Assembly: GCA_964538435.1 (NCBI GenBank) | Contig: CAZIDX010000007.1 | Location: 4,399-68,398, forward strand | DNA length: 64,000 nt | Direction: 5' to 3' | Origin: an uncultured Gammaproteobacteria bacterium | Lineage (GTDB): Bacteria; Patescibacteriota; Patescibacteriia; UBA9934; GWF2-40-263 | Shown: in pieces, positions 1-57,565 of the stretch | Numbering within the stretch: the stretch's first letter is position 1 | Layout of the letters: each line of letters starts with the position of its first letter | Notes under the pieces: generated by a model | Databases searched by the model: none | The model's input: the letters and a program-made list of their open reading frames with translations, nothing else | Told to the model about the DNA's origin: nothing | Translations under genes and position numbers: made by a program

Positions 1-1213
1 TGGTCTTCAGGCCGCTGAACACGGCGTGATTCCAGTCGATGTCCGCGATCTCGATGTCGAAGTCGCTGCTCGCGAGCCTCATGGCCTGGGCCACGGCGTT
101 GGAACGCTCCACGAAGGCAGCGAATCCGTCCGGGTTGGTCCGATCCATGAAGTTCAGGTTTCCGGCGTGCCCTACGAAGGTCGCGTCGCGGTACAGACCG
201 TCGGCGTCCTCGAAGGTGGGGTTGGCGTCGTAGTAGTCCACGGCGTACTGCATGAGGGCCATGTACTCGTCCGAGCCGGAGCCGTCGTACGCGTTCATCA
301 GGTCCTTGACCTTCTCGGCCGAGTACAGGTACGCGGCCACGAAGTTGCGGAGATCCTCGGGGTTCTGCTGCGCCCAGTCGGTGCGCACGAAGTACGAGTC
401 CGCGATGGTGCGGCGGCGATCGGCCGTGCTGGCGAGCACGTGTGCGCCGACCACGGAGCACTCGGCACCGTCGCAGGTCTGGTCCGGACCGCCGGTGAGG
501 GCGTACATGTCCGGAGTGATGACGAAGGCGCCGGCGATGTTCTCGTTGCGCTCGAAGGCCTCGACCGGTGAGCCGGGGCCGGACAGGTTGTCGACCCATT
601 CGATGTTCACGTCGGTCCACTTGAGGCCGGCGTCACCGAGGATCGCGTGCAGGAAGCCCATGTGCGGGCCACCCTTCTGGATGGCGATGGTCTTGCCGCG
701 GAGCTGGGTCAGGTCCGTGATGCCATCACGCACGATCAGGTGGTCACCGGCCGACCAGGTCATCTGGAAGACGAACTGGGGGCAGGCGCCGGGCTCGGAC
801 TGACAGAGCTCCTCGGTGTTCACGGCCACCATCACGAAGGTGCCGCGCAGGAACGGGCTCTTGCCGGACTTGTAGTCCGCGAGCTGCTGGCTCATGTCGT
901 CGCCGTTGACGATGCAGAGGTTCTGCCCGTACTCGGCGCAGATGGTGCCTTCGCGGCTCTGATCGCCGCCCGCACAGTAGTGCGTGGGGTAGTCGCCGCC
1001 CCAGGTGATGTCCGGGACCTGCGTGCACTGACCGGCCATCTTGCCCTTGCCGGGCATGCCGGAAGAGGACTTGGAGTTGCTCTTGGTGGGTGCGGTCTGG
1101 TTGCTCGTGGGAGCACCCCCGTCACTCGACGGTGGGGTCTGCTCCACACTCACGCAGCCAGCCACGAGGAAGCTGATCAGAGCCAGCATCGGCATCAGGA
1201 AACGGAGTCGCAT
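1..1213 (-). CDS. ABC-transporter substrate-binding lipoprotein (NitT/TauT/ThiY-like); C-terminus runs off window start
   Basis: ATG at 1213..1211 preceded by GGAGGA SD (rc of 1221-1226). N-terminus MRLRFLMPMLALISFLVAGC is a signal peptide plus lipobox, followed by a S/T/P-rich linker. ~65% GC with GC3 bias. Frame stays open to position 1 (checked at both ends); absent from the ORF track only because it leaves the window. Confidence 0.6.
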   Translation of the reverse strand, partial: MRLRFLMPMLALISFLVAGCVSVEQTPPSSDGGAPTSNQTAPTKSNSKSSSGMPGKGKMAGQCTQVPDITWGGDYPTHYCAGGDQSREGTICAEYGQNLCIVNGDDMSQQLADYKSGKSPFLRGTFVMVAVNTEELCQSEPGACPQFVFQMTWSAGDHLIVRDGITDLTQLRGKTIAIQKGGPHMGFLHAILGDAGLKWTDVNIEWVDNLSGPGSPVEAFERNENIAGAFVITPDMYALTGGPDQTCDGAECSVVGAHVLASTADRRRTIADSYFVRTDWAQQNPEDLRNFVAAYLYSAEKVKDLMNAYDGSGSDEYMALMQYAVDYYDANPTFEDADGLYRDATFVGHAGNLNFMDRTNPDGFAAFVERSNAVAQAMRLASSDFDIEIADIDWNHAVFSGLKT

Positions 1214-1800: not shown

Positions 1801-2358
1801 ATGTCCCCTTCCGACTTCCGCGTCGTCTCCAGCGCTCGCAAGCTCGTCCTCGTTCCCAAGATCGATGCCCCTGTGGTGTCCTTCCCGGACGGAGCCGAGA
1901 TCAACAGCTGGGGAGCCAACAACGAGACCCCCACCGTGGTGGTCTGCAACGGCACCGAGGAGACCCCGTCCTGGCAGGGTGTCGACGCCGTGACCGGCTT
2001 CGTCATCGTCAACGAGGTTCCCGAGGAGATCGCCGAAGCCGCCCTGGCCATGTACGAGTCCGGCAACTCCCTCGAGGACGTGCTGGCCTACCTGGTCGAG
2101 AACGGCTGCGTGGATCAGTACACGAGCTCGTGGAGCTTCAAGAAGACCAAGCTCTCTGTGGCCGGCACCGTCCTGAGCGACAAGTCCGGCATCTACAAGC
2201 GTGACGACCGTGACCTGATCGCCTGCTGGCGTGAGGGTGACACCTTCTTCACCGCCCCGAGTGGTGAAGGTCGGGTCATCGAGCCCGGCATCCTGCAGCG
2301 GACCTACCGCCTGCCGGACGGAAGTCAGATCGATCTCGATCAGGTTCCCGAGAAGTAG
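1801..2358 (+). CDS. hypothetical protein (high-GC island gene)
   Basis: 185-aa ORF with ordinary composition and GC3 bias. Antisense ORF 1675..2523 is Gly/Arg-rich reverse-frame junk. First ATG at 1801 (the ORF opens at 1747 with an alternative start codon). Confidence 0.5.
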   Translation: MSPSDFRVVSSARKLVLVPKIDAPVVSFPDGAEINSWGANNETPTVVVCNGTEETPSWQGVDAVTGFVIVNEVPEEIAEAALAMYESGNSLEDVLAYLVENGCVDQYTSSWSFKKTKLSVAGTVLSDKSGIYKRDDRDLIACWREGDTFFTAPSGEGRVIEPGILQRTYRLPDGSQIDLDQVPEK

Positions 2359-2595
2359 AACTAGCTCTTCATCACCCCCGGGTGGTAGAAGGGCATGGGA
2401 TCCAACCCTTGTGTGTAACAGTGACCCCTGTGGTCTCTGGAATGCGCTAGGAGTGGTTCCATGGAATGCAACGCTGCGGCTGAGCATTCCTGAGAAGCGT
2501 CTGCGGACGTGACTCAACCCCACTACGGCCCAGGGGTAAAAGGGCAGCGACCACCGGTTAGCGCAGTTGCGGATGCGCGCCGGTGGTTTTGTTTT

Positions 2596-2624
2596 TAAAA
2601 CAGACGCGCTTGACGTCTGTTTGT
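2596..2624 (-). terminator. rho-independent terminator at GC-content junction
   Basis: Inverted repeat AAACAGACG-N7-CGTCTGTTT (2598-2622) flanked by A/T runs, immediately after the stop (2625-2627) of the 997-aa gene. Confidence 0.5.
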
Positions 2625-5618
2625 TTATGACATGAAGGTTTGCAGTTTGTCTTCGAGGCTGTCGAGGTTTGCAAGGTGTATCTTATCTGGATTCTCTCTG
2701 GCTAATCTGACAAACTCTCTGAAATATTTTCTATGCACGATGTAGTTCTTTTCTTTTTTTCCTGTTGGCTCAGGTGAGCCGCCGAAATCTTTTGTCATGT
2801 GTTCATCAAAGACCTCTTCGTCAAGCGCGCCCTCGAGAAGATGAAAGACATGCTCATCAAACTTTGTGTCTTCTGTATCAGGTAAACGATCAAGGTTGCT
2901 CATCACAACAGAGGCTGCTTCTGCAAAACGGCCAGAGTCAGATAAGAGCACGATATCAAACCCGTTCTTGATTGACTCGTTGATTTCCATGATTGAGAAC
3001 ACTCCCCCGTTCCCAGCAACGAGCACACGCGGTTGGTCTTGGCTGATGCGAGCAAACAGGGATTCCATGTAAGCGATGTGCAAGTCATATCCACTCACAC
3101 GCTCTTCACCTTCTCGTCCAAACATGGCTGTGATTGGAGTAACTGCCGTGTCCACTGGAGCTAGAGCAAAGCGCTCCCAAGAGTCTGTTTGCTCCATCCA
3201 TGGATTATCTGGATAGACGGTGTTTCCAGCGGGCGAGATTGAAAACAGATGCGCTTGATCTCTAAACGGCAGGTGCTCGGTTTCAGAGCGATAGATTGTA
3301 TTTTGTTTTCCAAAAAATACACCTATTCCAGACTGTGTCCCTGGCACAGCAACATTTGCTTTTGCATCATGAGCGACCCGGATAACTGCTGAGCTCATGC
3401 GATTTAGCGGATGATCTTCTGGGCGATCTGTTTCTTTTACCATTCGGCAACCACCAACAACATTGATTAGAGGGCGATTTCGGTTCACCCGCAGCTTGTC
3501 GAGGACAGCTTCTTCGATATCAACTGGAATTGTCTCAGAGGGATGGTTGATTTCGTGATCCATTGCGACAACGCGGACATCGTGAGATTTTGAACAAAGC
3601 TCTTCATCAAATCCATAGTCTGGACACATGTTTTGTGCAAGCGAGAGGAATTCTGGTCCGTATTCTATTTCGTGATTCCGTACAGCAGGCCGGTACATAT
3701 CTTTGAACCCACACATCTCTGGGGTTGCTGCGCTGCTGTACAAAAACTTAGCGTAGTCCTGCCGAACGTCATCAAGCCCATCGAGGAACCTGCTCGCAGC
3801 TGCTTCATCGACAGGTGGCATCAATGCAACGAAGTCGTCGAGGAGATTGTAATACTCACTTGATTGGTTTGTCAGAACAAAGACCATTGATTCTTCTGCA
3901 ATGTCAGAGAGTTTTTGTTCCCAGTTTTTGTTTTTGTATTTGAGAAGTTTTTGCATCCGCTCAATCTGCTTGATGAAATGATCGAATGCGCGCAGACTCT
4001 CTTCAATCTCAATGTAGGCTGCTCTTTCAAACACTGGAGTTGCATTCTGCTGATCTGGCTTGAGGTCTTTGCTCTCATCGATCAGGATTCGAGCAACGCT
4101 TCCTTGATGCACAGATTCGAGAAAACTGTGCTGTCGCCCTTGCTTGGATTTTTTGTACTGACCTCGGAAAAAGAGAAACTGTGCATCTGGATCTGATTGC
4201 GGACCAGAAGCGAGTAGGTTGCGAGCGATTTTTTGGGCGCTGTAGTAACGGTGATCAGAAAGGATGCTGGACCGCGCCTTATAACTCTGCTCTTGCGCGT
4301 CACGCATTCCGTGATCGAAAAAGAATCGTCTGTCTCCAACGCGCTCTCCCGTTATTGCTATACCAACCCCCTCTGCAAAACGCGTGAGGGCATGTGCTCC
4401 CCACTCCTTGTTTTGCTCGAGGACAAGATCGATGAGCTTGTCTGGGATCACTTGTCCATGATCAAGAACACGTTTTGCCAAACGGTCTGGGAACTGAAGC
4501 ATCTCATCAATCACAGCTTGCTGCGTTTGTTCTGGAGTGGCCTTAGCAAGCCCGAGTGTGTCAGCAAACGCTGCGAGCTGATGTTCGCGCTTTGCATGCA
4601 GGTCTTCTGTGTCAAAATTTTCACTGGCGCGACGAAGCCCAAGCTCAAGTCCCTCTGCTTCTGATCCTAGCCAGTGTGACTCAAGCTCTGCTCTGAGCTC
4701 TTCTGAAACTAACCCAAACGGGATGTGGGCAACAAATGGTCTTTGGAGGATGTTCTTTGCTTTTCCCTTGCGTCGCCCATCAAAATGAACCTGTACACCG
4801 TTTGAATCGAGTGTGACGTGTCGGGTTTTCTTTCCGTTCACCCTGAACGTTCTTGCTAGACCTGATGTAAATAGTGCTGAGGTGAGTTTTGTGCGTTCGC
4901 TGCGTGCCTGATCTGCCAGATCTGGATGTGATCGCTCAATGTTTCTCAGCGCGTGTTCTGCACGAGCAAACTCTTGAGGGGTTAACGTTGCGATGGCATT
5001 GCTTTCAAAAAGCTCTGATGGGATGAATCCAAGAGACTCAATGAGTCGCCCTAGGTTGTCAGGGTTTGTTCGAAGAGCTGCGGCTGCAACAGGCGCCCAA
5101 TCGTCTTGCGGCTCCATACGAAGCACGCGGTAGGCAGCCGCTCGCACCTCACTCTCGTAGGTGTCCCAGGTCACATCCTCAAACCGATCTGCAAACACCA
5201 TCCGTTCGTGTAACTGATTACTGCTCTTTGCATCGAGAAGCAACGTGTCTTGCTCGTGTGAAATATTGGCTAGACTTGCTTTCCCAGTAAGCACGGCCTC
5301 CTGCGCCCAGTCGATCAGGTCTTTGAGTTCGTGATTTGATTGCAGAACAGTGTTGCGAACTCTTGCTCCTTGGTGACCAATAAGTTTTTGAAGGAGTCCA
5401 ACATTCTTTTCCACTTGCTGCTGCTCTTCTGGGCTAAGCATGAGGAAATCGTCCTTACTCAGACTGATTTCTTTTGTGTGTTCTGCGCCGTGTGATAGCA
5501 AAAATTGCCGCTGGCTTTCAAACACACCGGTGAGTGTTGTCTCGAGCTTTGTGAAGGAAACAACTTCTCTGTGCTGAACAAGATCATGCTGCCTTCTTCC
5601 TCCTTCTCCACCCATCAT
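2625..5618 (-). CDS. large (997 aa) uncharacterised protein with C-terminal LOG/SLOG-like Rossmann domain (tentative)
   Basis: Single uninterrupted ORF. C-terminal ~350 aa carries INVVGGCRMV ... LVAGNGGVFSIMEINE, resembling the GGGxG and PGGxGTxxE motifs of LOG-family proteins (compare canonical LOG at 25553..26281). N-terminal ~600 aa is helical with no motif I recognise. TAACAT box 9 nt upstream of the ATG, no SD. Confidence 0.6.
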   Translation of the reverse strand: MMGGEGGRRQHDLVQHREVVSFTKLETTLTGVFESQRQFLLSHGAEHTKEISLSKDDFLMLSPEEQQQVEKNVGLLQKLIGHQGARVRNTVLQSNHELKDLIDWAQEAVLTGKASLANISHEQDTLLLDAKSSNQLHERMVFADRFEDVTWDTYESEVRAAAYRVLRMEPQDDWAPVAAAALRTNPDNLGRLIESLGFIPSELFESNAIATLTPQEFARAEHALRNIERSHPDLADQARSERTKLTSALFTSGLARTFRVNGKKTRHVTLDSNGVQVHFDGRRKGKAKNILQRPFVAHIPFGLVSEELRAELESHWLGSEAEGLELGLRRASENFDTEDLHAKREHQLAAFADTLGLAKATPEQTQQAVIDEMLQFPDRLAKRVLDHGQVIPDKLIDLVLEQNKEWGAHALTRFAEGVGIAITGERVGDRRFFFDHGMRDAQEQSYKARSSILSDHRYYSAQKIARNLLASGPQSDPDAQFLFFRGQYKKSKQGRQHSFLESVHQGSVARILIDESKDLKPDQQNATPVFERAAYIEIEESLRAFDHFIKQIERMQKLLKYKNKNWEQKLSDIAEESMVFVLTNQSSEYYNLLDDFVALMPPVDEAAASRFLDGLDDVRQDYAKFLYSSAATPEMCGFKDMYRPAVRNHEIEYGPEFLSLAQNMCPDYGFDEELCSKSHDVRVVAMDHEINHPSETIPVDIEEAVLDKLRVNRNRPLINVVGGCRMVKETDRPEDHPLNRMSSAVIRVAHDAKANVAVPGTQSGIGVFFGKQNTIYRSETEHLPFRDQAHLFSISPAGNTVYPDNPWMEQTDSWERFALAPVDTAVTPITAMFGREGEERVSGYDLHIAYMESLFARISQDQPRVLVAGNGGVFSIMEINESIKNGFDIVLLSDSGRFAEAASVVMSNLDRLPDTEDTKFDEHVFHLLEGALDEEVFDEHMTKDFGGSPEPTGKKEKNYIVHRKYFREFVRLARENPDKIHLANLDSLEDKLQTFMS

Positions 5619-6537: not shown

Positions 6538-6563
6538 TATTCTGATTCAAACTCAGAGCCCTC

Positions 6564-6594
6564 TAAGGGGCCGGGTCGTTACTTGTAGCATTGC
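6564..6594 (+). repeat. left 31-bp terminal inverted repeat
   Basis: Exact reverse-complement match to 7443-7473. Confidence 0.8.
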
Positions 6595-6597
6595 TTT

Positions 6598-7458
6598 ATG
6601 GCAAGACAGCTTCGTATTGAATTTCCAGGTGCGTTGTATCATGTTTTCGCACGCGGGAATGCAAAACAAGACATTTTTCTTGACGCCGATGATCGGACTT
6701 TGTTTCTAAAGAGTCTTGAGTTTTGTGTTATGACTCATAATTTGATTTGCCATGCATATTGCCTAATGGACAATCACTACCACCTTCTCTTGGAGACACC
6801 AGACGGGAACCTGTCACAAGGAATGAGGGATTTGAATGGGAATTATGCTCAGTCCTTCAATTCTCGACATGACCGTGTCGGTCATTTGTTTCAGGGTAGA
6901 TATAAGGCAATTGTGGTTGAAAAAGAAGTTTATCTATGTGAATTGGCAAAATACATTGCTAACAACCCTGTAAAAGAAGGGCTTGTAAAATCTGCAGATG
7001 AATGGGTGTGGGGCAGCCATCAAGCAACCATCGGAAAAACAGAAGCGCCAAGCTGGTTGACCACAGATTTTATATTGGGGCACTTTTCAACTAATAGGCA
7101 GATGGCGCTTGAAGAGTATCGTGGTTTTGTATCCAGCTTAGAAGGTGGTGGTGACCCATATAACAACGTCCGCAAAGGTGCCATTATCGGCTCAGAGCAA
7201 TTTGCTTTTTCATTATGGGAAAAATTTGAAAGCTCAGAAGAGATAAAGGATGTTGTTGTCTCAGAGAGAATGATTGGCAGACCTTCCTTGAATGATATCT
7301 TCTCTGGAGCAGGAACCTTGAAACAGCGTGATGATCGTATCATTGCAGCAAAAAGGCGAGCGGGTTATACAATTACCGAAATTGCAAATCACTTACAGCT
7401 TCACCGAACAACGGTTAGCAGGATTTACAATCGAGAACAACAGCAATGCTACAAGTAA
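6598..7458 (+). CDS. IS200-like / REP-associated tyrosine transposase (Y1 HuH family, COG1943-type) with C-terminal HTH
   Basis: N-terminus RIEFPGALYHVFARGNAKQDIF and HuH motif CLMDNHYHLLLETP, then GHLFQGRYKAIVV (catalytic Tyr region); matches the widespread long IS200-like transposase family. C-terminal AGYTITEIANHLQLHRTTVSRI is HTH-like. Confidence 0.75.
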   Translation: MARQLRIEFPGALYHVFARGNAKQDIFLDADDRTLFLKSLEFCVMTHNLICHAYCLMDNHYHLLLETPDGNLSQGMRDLNGNYAQSFNSRHDRVGHLFQGRYKAIVVEKEVYLCELAKYIANNPVKEGLVKSADEWVWGSHQATIGKTEAPSWLTTDFILGHFSTNRQMALEEYRGFVSSLEGGGDPYNNVRKGAIIGSEQFAFSLWEKFESSEEIKDVVVSERMIGRPSLNDIFSGAGTLKQRDDRIIAAKRRAGYTITEIANHLQLHRTTVSRIYNREQQQCYK

Positions 7459-7473
7459 CGACCCGGCCCCTTA
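7443..7473 (-). repeat. right 31-bp terminal inverted repeat (followed by partial duplicate GGCCCCTTAG 7475-7487)
   Basis: Exact reverse-complement match to 6564-6594. Confidence 0.8.
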
Positions 7474-7532
7474 GCGGCCCCTTAGTGTGATTGGAACAAC
7501 TTAGTTGCGAAACGAGATTGGAAAACGTATGA

Positions 7533-37368: not shown

Positions 37369-37418
37369 CAAACCAAAAAAATCCAGGCACCTGCTTGGAG
37401 TTTTTGGTTAATTAACAC

Positions 37419-37587
37419 TAAGGGGCCGGGTCGTTACTTGTAGCATTTCTAGCTTTTCCACATGTTTAGTACAAAAAAATGGATTTAATATCCATTTTTT
37501 TTGAAGTTTTTTGTTTACAGGTTTCAATTTATACTCGTTTAGACTCAGGAATAGAATATGAATGCTACAAGTAACGACCCGGCCCCC
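37419..37587. mobile_element. MITE-like non-autonomous element with the same terminal inverted repeats as the IS200/RAYT-like element
   Basis: TAAGGGGCCGGGTCGTTACTTGTAGCATT at 37419-37447 and its rc (26/27 nt) at 37561-37587 flank ~115 bp of AT-rich ORF-less DNA, wedged between the stops of convergent genes. Confidence 0.6.
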
Positions 37588-57379: not shown

Positions 57380-57562
57380 ACGTTTATCTTGCTGTGAGTG
57401 GGATCCTTCGCTCCGCTCAGGATGACGGGGTGGAGTAGGGTTTGACTTGCTAGAGGTGGGATCCTTCGCTCCGCTCAGGATGACGGGGTGGAGTAGGGTT
57501 TGACTTGCTAGAGGTGGGATCCTTCGCTCCGCTCAGGATGACGGGGTGGAGTAGGGTTTGAC
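57380..57562 (+). repeat. 58-bp tandem repeat, ~3.1 copies
   Basis: Unit GTGGGATCCTTCGCTCCGCTCAGGATGACGGGGTGGAGTAGGGTTTGACTTGCTAGAG starting 57398, 57456 and 57514 (perfect copies; third truncated), with a partial unit 57380-57397. No unique spacers, so not CRISPR. Confidence 0.8.
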
Positions 57563-57565
57563 TAT

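Follow-up and report, generated by a model that had tools for sequence, protein, structure and literature searches.

A probable TIRtron with a variant terminal box in a Patescibacteria genome, and the two-part arms of its relatives

Introduction

Y1/HUH proteins of the RAYT (TnpA_REP) kind reportedly work together with REP, BIME and REPIN sequences in systems called REPtrons, which are said to have been described by Nunvar in 2010, Bertels and Rainey in 2011 and Ton-Hoang in 2012, with 4ER8 as the structure. A REP unit has GTAG or GTGG at the base of a short, GC-rich hairpin. Here we analyse a 64,000-nt stretch of DNA (contig CAZIDX010000007.1 of assembly GCA_964538435.1, positions 4,399 to 68,398; hereafter the window) from a candidate-phyla-radiation (CPR) lineage, in which the gene of a RAYT-like Y1/HUH protein stands between inverted repeats. 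The locus is very probably a TIRtron: a TIRYT gene bracketed by its own cognate inverted repeats, with a gene-less dimer of the same repeat 30 kb away.

RAYT-like genes with flanking terminal inverted repeats (TIRs) were named TIRYT/TIRtron by Di Nocera, De Gregorio and Rocco (2013, BMC Genomics 14:522; PMC3733652). As set out there, the motif GGGGWSAS is common to many arms, the distance to the gene is similar among them, and TIR copies occur single, dimeric or grouped. Quentin, Siguier, Chandler and Fichant (2018, BMC Genomics 19:475; PMC6006769), in their account of these proteins, place 20 of 26 TIRYTs in TnpAY1 subclass 2.1; by the same account those 20 all carry a C-terminal helix-turn-helix (HTH) domain (Bac_DnaA_C, HTH_23 or HTH_28) and have no REPs nearby. 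The published sets are described as complete genomes of cultured phyla, with tnpAY1 genes outside insertion sequences enriched in large genomes (PMC6006769).

The architecture was pointed out in an earlier reading of the window from its letters, the original prediction. It is not new: the class has been on record since 2013 (PMC3733652), and the locus is very probably a further member of it (subclass 2.1), from a CPR lineage and with a variant terminal box. The prediction was correct that classical IS200/IS605 elements lack TIRs, and rightly sensed that the locus is unlike them.

Results

The window unit holds a single gene between two arms that lie close against it (Table 1). The original prediction described a perfect 31-bp inverted repeat beside the start codon and over the stop codon, followed by a 10-bp partial duplication of the repeat end. 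The repeat is real and perfect, but 33 nt long; only 2 nt separate the left arm from the ATG (6598), the TAA lies within the right arm, and the duplication is present at a length of 11 nt. An imperfect extension carries the inverted repeat to 49 nt at 90% identity (6547-6595 / 7442-7490), and 0 of 100 dinucleotide-preserving shuffles of the window gave an inverted-repeat match. The duplicated unit outside the right arm is composed of 4 nt of flank and the outer 7 nt of the arm, with its inner boundary between 7463 and 7464, 7 nt inside the arm (+7). The degenerate copy outside the left arm, CTCAGAGCCCT, is identical to CTAAGGGGCCG at 7 of 11 positions and is part of the extended 49-nt inverted repeat.

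Table 1. Coordinates of the TIRYT unit, its protein domains and the ORF-less dimer within the window (ORF, open reading frame)
Feature	Position	Strand	Details
Left TIR	6563-6595	+	33 nt, CTAAGGGGCCGGGTCGTTACTTGTAGCATTGCT; perfect complement of 7442-7474
Right TIR	7442-7474	-	33 nt; overlaps the last five codons and the TAA stop (7456-7458)
Terminal box	6567-6577	+	GGGGCCGGGTC; layout by comparison with 176 related arms
Inner boxes	6578-6591	+	GTTACTT GTAGCAT; layout by comparison with 176 related arms
Junction scar	7475-7485	+	11 nt; exact tandem copy of CGGCCCCTTAG (7464-7474)
Degenerate, older copy of the 11-nt junction unit	6552-6562	+	CTCAGAGCCCT; just outside the left arm
TIRYT gene	6598-7458	+	286 aa, intact ORF; sole ORF between the arms
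Y1/HUH catalytic core	residues ~1-140		HUH nt 6775-6783 (H60-Y-H62); Tyr119 nt 6952-6954
Conserved middle domain			after the catalytic core, before the HTH
C-terminal three-helix HTH	nt 7318-7455		residues ~241-285
ORF-less TIR dimer (miniature element)	37418-37586	.	169 bp; 30 kb from the gene-bearing unit
Dimer arms	37418-37450 and 37561-37586		
Dimer interior	37451-37560		110 nt, AT-rich

The arms recur across the protein family. A database search returns thousands of homologues, the named ones belonging to Candidatus Uhrbacteria or the Patescibacteria group. We took the loci of three homologues by exact look-up and 80 more from metagenomes and scanned the flanks of each gene for inverted repeats. 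In the ~80 loci of homologues at 43-60% protein identity, almost every arm begins GGGGTCAGGTCTT / (G)GGGTCAGGTCTT. A flanking inverted repeat scores at least 14 in 72 of 89 gene copies (65 of 81 without re-sampled loci); shuffled controls reach at most 14 and typically 8-12, and a direct-orientation control usually gives 6-11, with the exception of four loci that have direct repeats (16-30). In a position matrix built from 75 left and 71 right arms the flank is uninformative and conservation starts abruptly at the first G, holding 1.5-2 bits over 12-13 positions before weaker, lineage-specific sequence follows. The terminal box may, on its sequence, be readable as two half-sites, their relative orientation differing by lineage. 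The spacing from terminus to start codon has its mode at 46 nt (24 of 75 loci).

The same terminus is found on plasmids of cultured bacteria, namely Legionella adelaidensis (GGAGGGTCAGGCC), Sporomusa termitida (GGGGTCAGGCC) and Rhodospirillum rubrum (GGGGTCAGACCCC). With arms conserved throughout the protein family, these three plasmid copies included, the repeats are not incidental, a possibility for which the original prediction had left room. The arm on the R. rubrum plasmid NC_007641.1 (L094:446-464, 1212-1230) is palindromic, in contrast to the direct GGTC-A-GGTC of CPR arms. The terminal box that is almost invariant in the family, GGGGTCAGGTCTT, appears in the window unit as the variant GGGGCCGGGTCGT. 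Homologous loci show an exact fit to GGGGWSAS, GGGGTCAG, at the same position; by this comparison, the window arm carries a derived form of the motif. Single arms, folded on either strand, give no significant hairpin (z -0.8 to +1.1), and the arms are therefore neither REPs nor IS200-type ends. Aligned flanks of related loci show no target-site duplications; they tend to extend the inverted repeat by 2-4 nt.

As predicted, the encoded protein is a RAYT-like Y1/HUH transposase, with a Y1_Tnp domain, intact catalytic residues and a predicted fold like that of 4ER8. Pfam Y1_Tnp matches with E 5.6e-11 (43.1 bits, cut-off 23), and H60, H62 and Y119, the last in a YIxxNP motif, are invariant in an alignment of 21 homologues. 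The NCBIfam model REP_Tyr_transpos scores 77.9 bits (cut-off 80). At the C terminus, HTH_23 (E 4.7e-5, 23.5 bits, cut-off 24.6) and HTH_28 (E 6.9e-4) fall just under their gathering thresholds. The AlphaFold (AF2) model has a confidence (pLDDT) of 83.6; its best match in the Protein Data Bank is 4ER8, E. coli TnpA_REP (target TM 0.79), followed by the ISDra2, IS608 and IS200 transposases, and its last 45 residues (241-285) form a three-helix bundle (pLDDT 84-92). Identity to the published TIRYTs pca3049 and tkm1558 (sequences from Additional file 5 of PMC3733652) is 38% over 146 aa (E 5e-32) and 30% over 212 aa (E 1e-28), respectively, and identity to E. coli RAYT is 22% (E 3e-7).

The inner part of the arm has a periodicity of its own. 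Its self-identity is 45% at a shift of 7 nt versus 20-37% at other shifts, and in many lineages it consists of two tandem 7-mers that change together (TGGAATC TGGAATT, CGGCTTC CGGCTTT and TCCAGTG TCCAGTT are examples). We compared inner-arm divergence with the divergence of protein regions in 63 elements, using partial correlation and a permutation (Mantel-type) test that controls phylogenetic non-independence only in part. Divergence of the C-terminal HTH, the fastest-evolving part of the protein, correlates with that of the inner arm (r 0.47, partial r 0.38, permutation p 0.001), and divergence of the catalytic core does not (r 0.19, partial r -0.06, p 0.86). Since inner-arm divergence tracks the HTH and not the core, the comparison speaks, short of proof, for an HTH that recognises the inner boxes.

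Duplications like the one in the window recur at related ends. Exact tandem duplications across the junction of flank and arm are present at 19 of 199 ends (9.5%); among 5460 positions drawn at random, 17 have one. We also counted every full tandem duplication that lies no more than 60 nt from an end (n=56). The inner boundary is at +7 (GGGGTCA^GGTC) in 13 of these events, as it is in the window duplication (CTAAGGGGCCG x2); 5 events have it at +8 or +9, and 8 between 0 and +3. The outer boundary is variable: the period ranges from 8 to 19 nt and microhomology is absent. Both ends of the unit are affected. Iteron-like arrays of 4-5 units, each made of flank plus GGGGTCA, lie directly outside the arm at L030:3120-3200, L051:810-865 and L057:1840-1915. 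Their periods are 13, 13, 16 and 15 nt in L057, likewise unequal in L051, and a constant 16 nt in L030; the unequal periods of L051 and L057 point to repeated independent events. On the Legionella adelaidensis plasmid NZ_LR134433.1 (L092:262-300) the scar CACTCTGGAGGGTC x2 is followed by AGGCCTTGCC, its boundary one base further out, and the presence of a scar in the TIRtron of a cultured gammaproteobacterium indicates that the phenomenon is not confined to CPR bacteria.

One fixed and one variable boundary is the product expected of a site-specific nick, short outward strand-displacement synthesis and resealing, and from these junctions we infer that the scars may arise by nicking at GGGGTCA^GGTC. 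The fuller proposition, that the tandem duplications are in-vivo scars of TIRYT that map cleavage 7 nt inside the terminal box and a secondary site at the very terminus, is tentative, and we consider it rather doubtful. Alternatively, another element could have inserted and been excised at a fixed position; the variable length of the scars argues against ordinary target-site duplication.

Judged from related loci, the gene-bearing unit has moved, because near-identical copies occupy unrelated contexts. Locus L060 holds two gene-bearing copies at 99.3% nucleotide identity, 1.6 kb apart and with unrelated flanks, and between the members of five further copy pairs (88-90% identical) the flanks show no detectable similarity. 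The L060 copies span 2262-3245 and 3870-4855; the 8 nt AAGCACCG are common to both outside the left arm and nothing is common outside the right, so that on one side alone the duplicated segment starts beyond the conserved terminus. In L015, L036, L060/L069 and L072 a full copy has tandem or fragmentary TIRYT copies beside it, which suggests that TIRYT units accumulate next to one another. The loci, 375 kb in all, contain 151 occurrences of the 13-mer GGGGTCAGGTCTT with at most one mismatch (~0.5 expected); 135 of them flank genes and 16 are orphan, and the orphan arms in L081 make up a 58-bp arm-to-arm dimer and a 750-bp pair. Earlier orphan counts based on a 10-mer were dropped, about half of them being expected by chance, and were redone with the 13-mer.

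Outside the source genome, a scan of 1.2 Tb of genome contigs with the 20-mer CCGGGTCGTTACTTGTAGCA gave one unpaired match, in a metagenome-assembled genome of Saccharimonadales. This match (L002:107-127, DATCYV010000053.1) is 21 nt long, and the surrounding 5.8 kb contain no TIRYT gene; it could be a chance match, about one being expected, or a relic solo arm. The Logan contig of the gene (L001), which comprises the segment between the arms, was considered as a circle and rejected: a 33-nt inverted repeat is expected to break an assembly at k=31.

The ORF-less 169-bp element with the same ends, also part of the original prediction, is confirmed at coordinates shifted by one base (Table 1), and corresponds to the 'dimeric TIR' of the TIRtron description. 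Its 26-nt arms (37422-37447, 37561-37586) are identical to those of the gene-bearing unit, so that the core GGGGCCGGGTCGTTACTTGTAGCATT is the same in all four arms within the window; the left arm of the dimer stretches to 33 nt with one mismatch. The element is placed between convergent genes, 3 nt beyond the stop codon of the minus-strand gene, and, when folded as single-stranded DNA, takes the form of a single long hairpin (-42.4 kcal/mol, z = -11.7). The interior itself contains a hairpin with A7 and T8 runs on its sides (AAAAAAATGGATTTAATATCCATTTTTTTT), which, between convergent genes, might terminate transcription from both sides. The upstream gene has a terminator-like site of its own at 37382-37399.

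Elsewhere in the window, a scan of its whole length against Rfam gave no RNA family, nor did any tRNA turn up. A perfect tandem repeat at 57398-57563 (58-nt unit, 2.9 copies, 100% identity) sits where 57439-57565 has no ORF of at least 60 aa.

Discussion

These comparisons lead us to a model of how TIRYT and its arms could work. The arm would have two parts, a near-invariant terminal box of 11-13 nt and an inner stretch of ~14 nt that is specific to the lineage and often consists of two tandem 7-mers. The inner boxes would be read on duplex DNA by the HTH domain, and the conserved HUH core would act on the terminal box, nicking at a point 7 nt into the arm (GGGGTCA^GGTC or the matching position on the complement). 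Segments between TIRs, gene-bearing or not, would thereby occasionally be copied or moved. In some cycles the nick would be extended a few bases outward, with the displaced 5' end kept as a phosphotyrosine adduct, and then resealed; resealing would leave a short tandem duplication of flank plus terminus, of which the 11-nt repeat in the window would be one. Binding, the position and strand of the nick, and the route of nicking, extension and resealing are all what we infer from the comparisons above.

Several observations weigh against this model, or against an active unit in this genome. To our knowledge, the characterised Y1 enzymes of the HUH class act on single-stranded hairpins and not on duplex inverted repeats, and a search of the accessible literature found no experimental study of any TIRYT. 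The terminal box of the window, GGGGCCGG, fits GGGGWSAS at 6 of 8 positions and departs from it at 2. The scars could come from other processes at a protein-bound site, and the correlation with the HTH carries the limits given with it above. The homologue P0096 has one fixed genomic context in 24 contigs, a constancy that fits a stably inherited, possibly domesticated gene equally well as a mobile one. The window contains one gene copy and one dimer in total, and exact look-ups of the flanking proteins showed no empty site or polymorphism; their sole return was a Logan contig of the same sample, broken at the dimer.

The state of the window gene belongs to the same side of the balance. Its terminus stands 30 nt from the ATG, closer than in any of the 75 relatives examined, and compared with the closest relatives (L004:2975-3003, L003:1185-1216, L011:55-90) ~16 nt are missing near 6590-6600. 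In the relatives this segment holds an extended -10 box (TGGTATAAT, TGGTACAAT or TGTTAAAAT) just 5' of the ATG, which suggests that they use leaderless or short-leader transcription and that the promoter has been lost in the window copy. The region upstream of the window gene contains no promoter-like site, and the terminator hairpin of the preceding gene is present there. With neither the -10 box nor an upstream promoter-like site, the window copy may be silent or poorly expressed despite its intact ORF. The original prediction held that the family is or was active here with defined ends. Related loci supply the evidence of movement; for this genome the case is thin, with one gene copy, one miniature and a lost promoter box.

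Under a strict REPtron reading, the enzyme would recognise GTAG plus a hairpin on single-stranded DNA, and a domesticated single-copy gene would mobilise short repeats in trans. The RAYT-like protein, the GTAG in the inner arm of the window, the folding of the 169-bp dimer as one long REPIN-like hairpin, the single locus of P0096 in 24 contigs and the typically single-copy state of RAYTs (PMC5581495) all speak for such a system, yet individual arms have no hairpin of their own, GTAG is missing from most related arms, and the spacing between arm and gene is fixed (mode 46 nt). The gene-bearing unit is, moreover, itself duplicated and present in unrelated contexts, and no REPs are reported near subclass 2.1 genes in the account of PMC6006769. 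We regard this reading as improbable. An ordinary IS200/IS605 insertion sequence, moving by single-strand peel-and-paste via subterminal hairpins and flanked by inverted repeats only through coincidence, would share the Pfam Y1_Tnp domain and the structural similarity to IS608 and ISDra2 TnpA. Folding, however, finds no subterminal hairpins, long TIRs are conserved in ~80 relatives, and the protein is nearer to RAYT/TIRYT than to IS200 TnpA, twice the length of TnpA_IS200 and equipped with extra domains, with no tnpB gene. Arm folding, terminal repeats, protein length and the absence of tnpB refute this reading among the features tested, and it is hardly credible.

The repeats might instead be regulatory or structural sites: operators through which the HTH controls its own gene, or segments whose pairing stabilises or ends transcripts. 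The protein would then be a domesticated DNA-binding factor. In relatives the left arm lies a fixed 46 nt from the ATG beside the extended -10 box, the HTH and the inner boxes co-vary, and the dimer is situated between convergent genes with a terminator-like hairpin, all as such a role would have it. Against this, the HUH motif and the catalytic Tyr are invariant, which argues for retained nicking and joining chemistry, and autoregulation needs no identical inverted arm downstream of the gene. Gene-less dimers and solo arms exist, near-identical units occupy unrelated contexts, and the fixed boundary of the junction duplications points to DNA breakage; a purely regulatory role is therefore very improbable. 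A TIRtron accounts better for the locus, and it is on this reading that we consider its wider meaning.

Subclass 2.1, the TIRYTs, is the second-largest bacterial group of Y1/HUH proteins. The locus adds little by itself; the comparison it prompted yields predictions that can be tested across the class: an arm in two parts, a candidate nick site 7 nt within it, and a proposed origin for the small duplications. If the model is true, TIRYTs would differ from every characterised Y1 enzyme in having a duplex arm read by an HTH and a nick at a fixed distance, aborted cycles of nicking, extension and resealing would build the iteron-like arrays of flank plus GGGGTCA, and such elements would be active in reduced CPR genomes. 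TIRtron units are common in, and have moved within, Patescibacteria, despite small genomes that are otherwise poor in repeats.

Compared with known systems, the 169-bp element resembles miniature inverted-repeat transposable elements (MITEs) and REPINs in being short, ORF-less, intergenic and bounded by the inverted repeats of a protein-coding partner. It differs from them in an interior unrelated to that of the gene-bearing unit, in the lack of a target-site duplication and in being the one copy in 64 kb. With IS200/IS605 elements (IS608 and ISDra2 TnpA) the unit shares Y1/HUH chemistry and the absence of any evident target-site duplication. Unlike these, it has TIRs in place of subterminal hairpins, a 286-aa protein about twice as long as TnpA (about 130-160 aa) with two extra domains, and neither tnpB nor any second ORF between its arms; given two symmetrical ends, strand-specific peel-and-paste is not obviously applicable. 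REPtrons come closer, with the same catalytic fold and motifs (4ER8 being the best structural match), a gene between inverted copies of a short repeat, and gene-less inverted dimers that can form a long hairpin. The unit departs from REPtrons in its arms, which are not palindromic and have no GTAG-plus-hairpin unit, in the additional middle and HTH domains of its protein, and in an apparently low number of repeat copies (four arms in 64 kb).

The described TIRYT/TIRtron class is matched in a RAYT-like Y1/HUH protein of ~230-300 aa with a C-terminal HTH, in a gene set between TIRs at a roughly constant distance, in the existence of solo and dimeric arms, and in the arm terminus of the relatives, GGGGTCAG, which fits GGGGWSAS exactly. 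Three features may go beyond what the published descriptions set out for the class: the fixed +7 scars, the division of the arm into two parts, and the way the inner boxes co-vary with the HTH. The window locus stands apart from the described members in its host, a small-genome CPR (Patescibacteria) lineage, and in its variant terminus GGGGCCGG.

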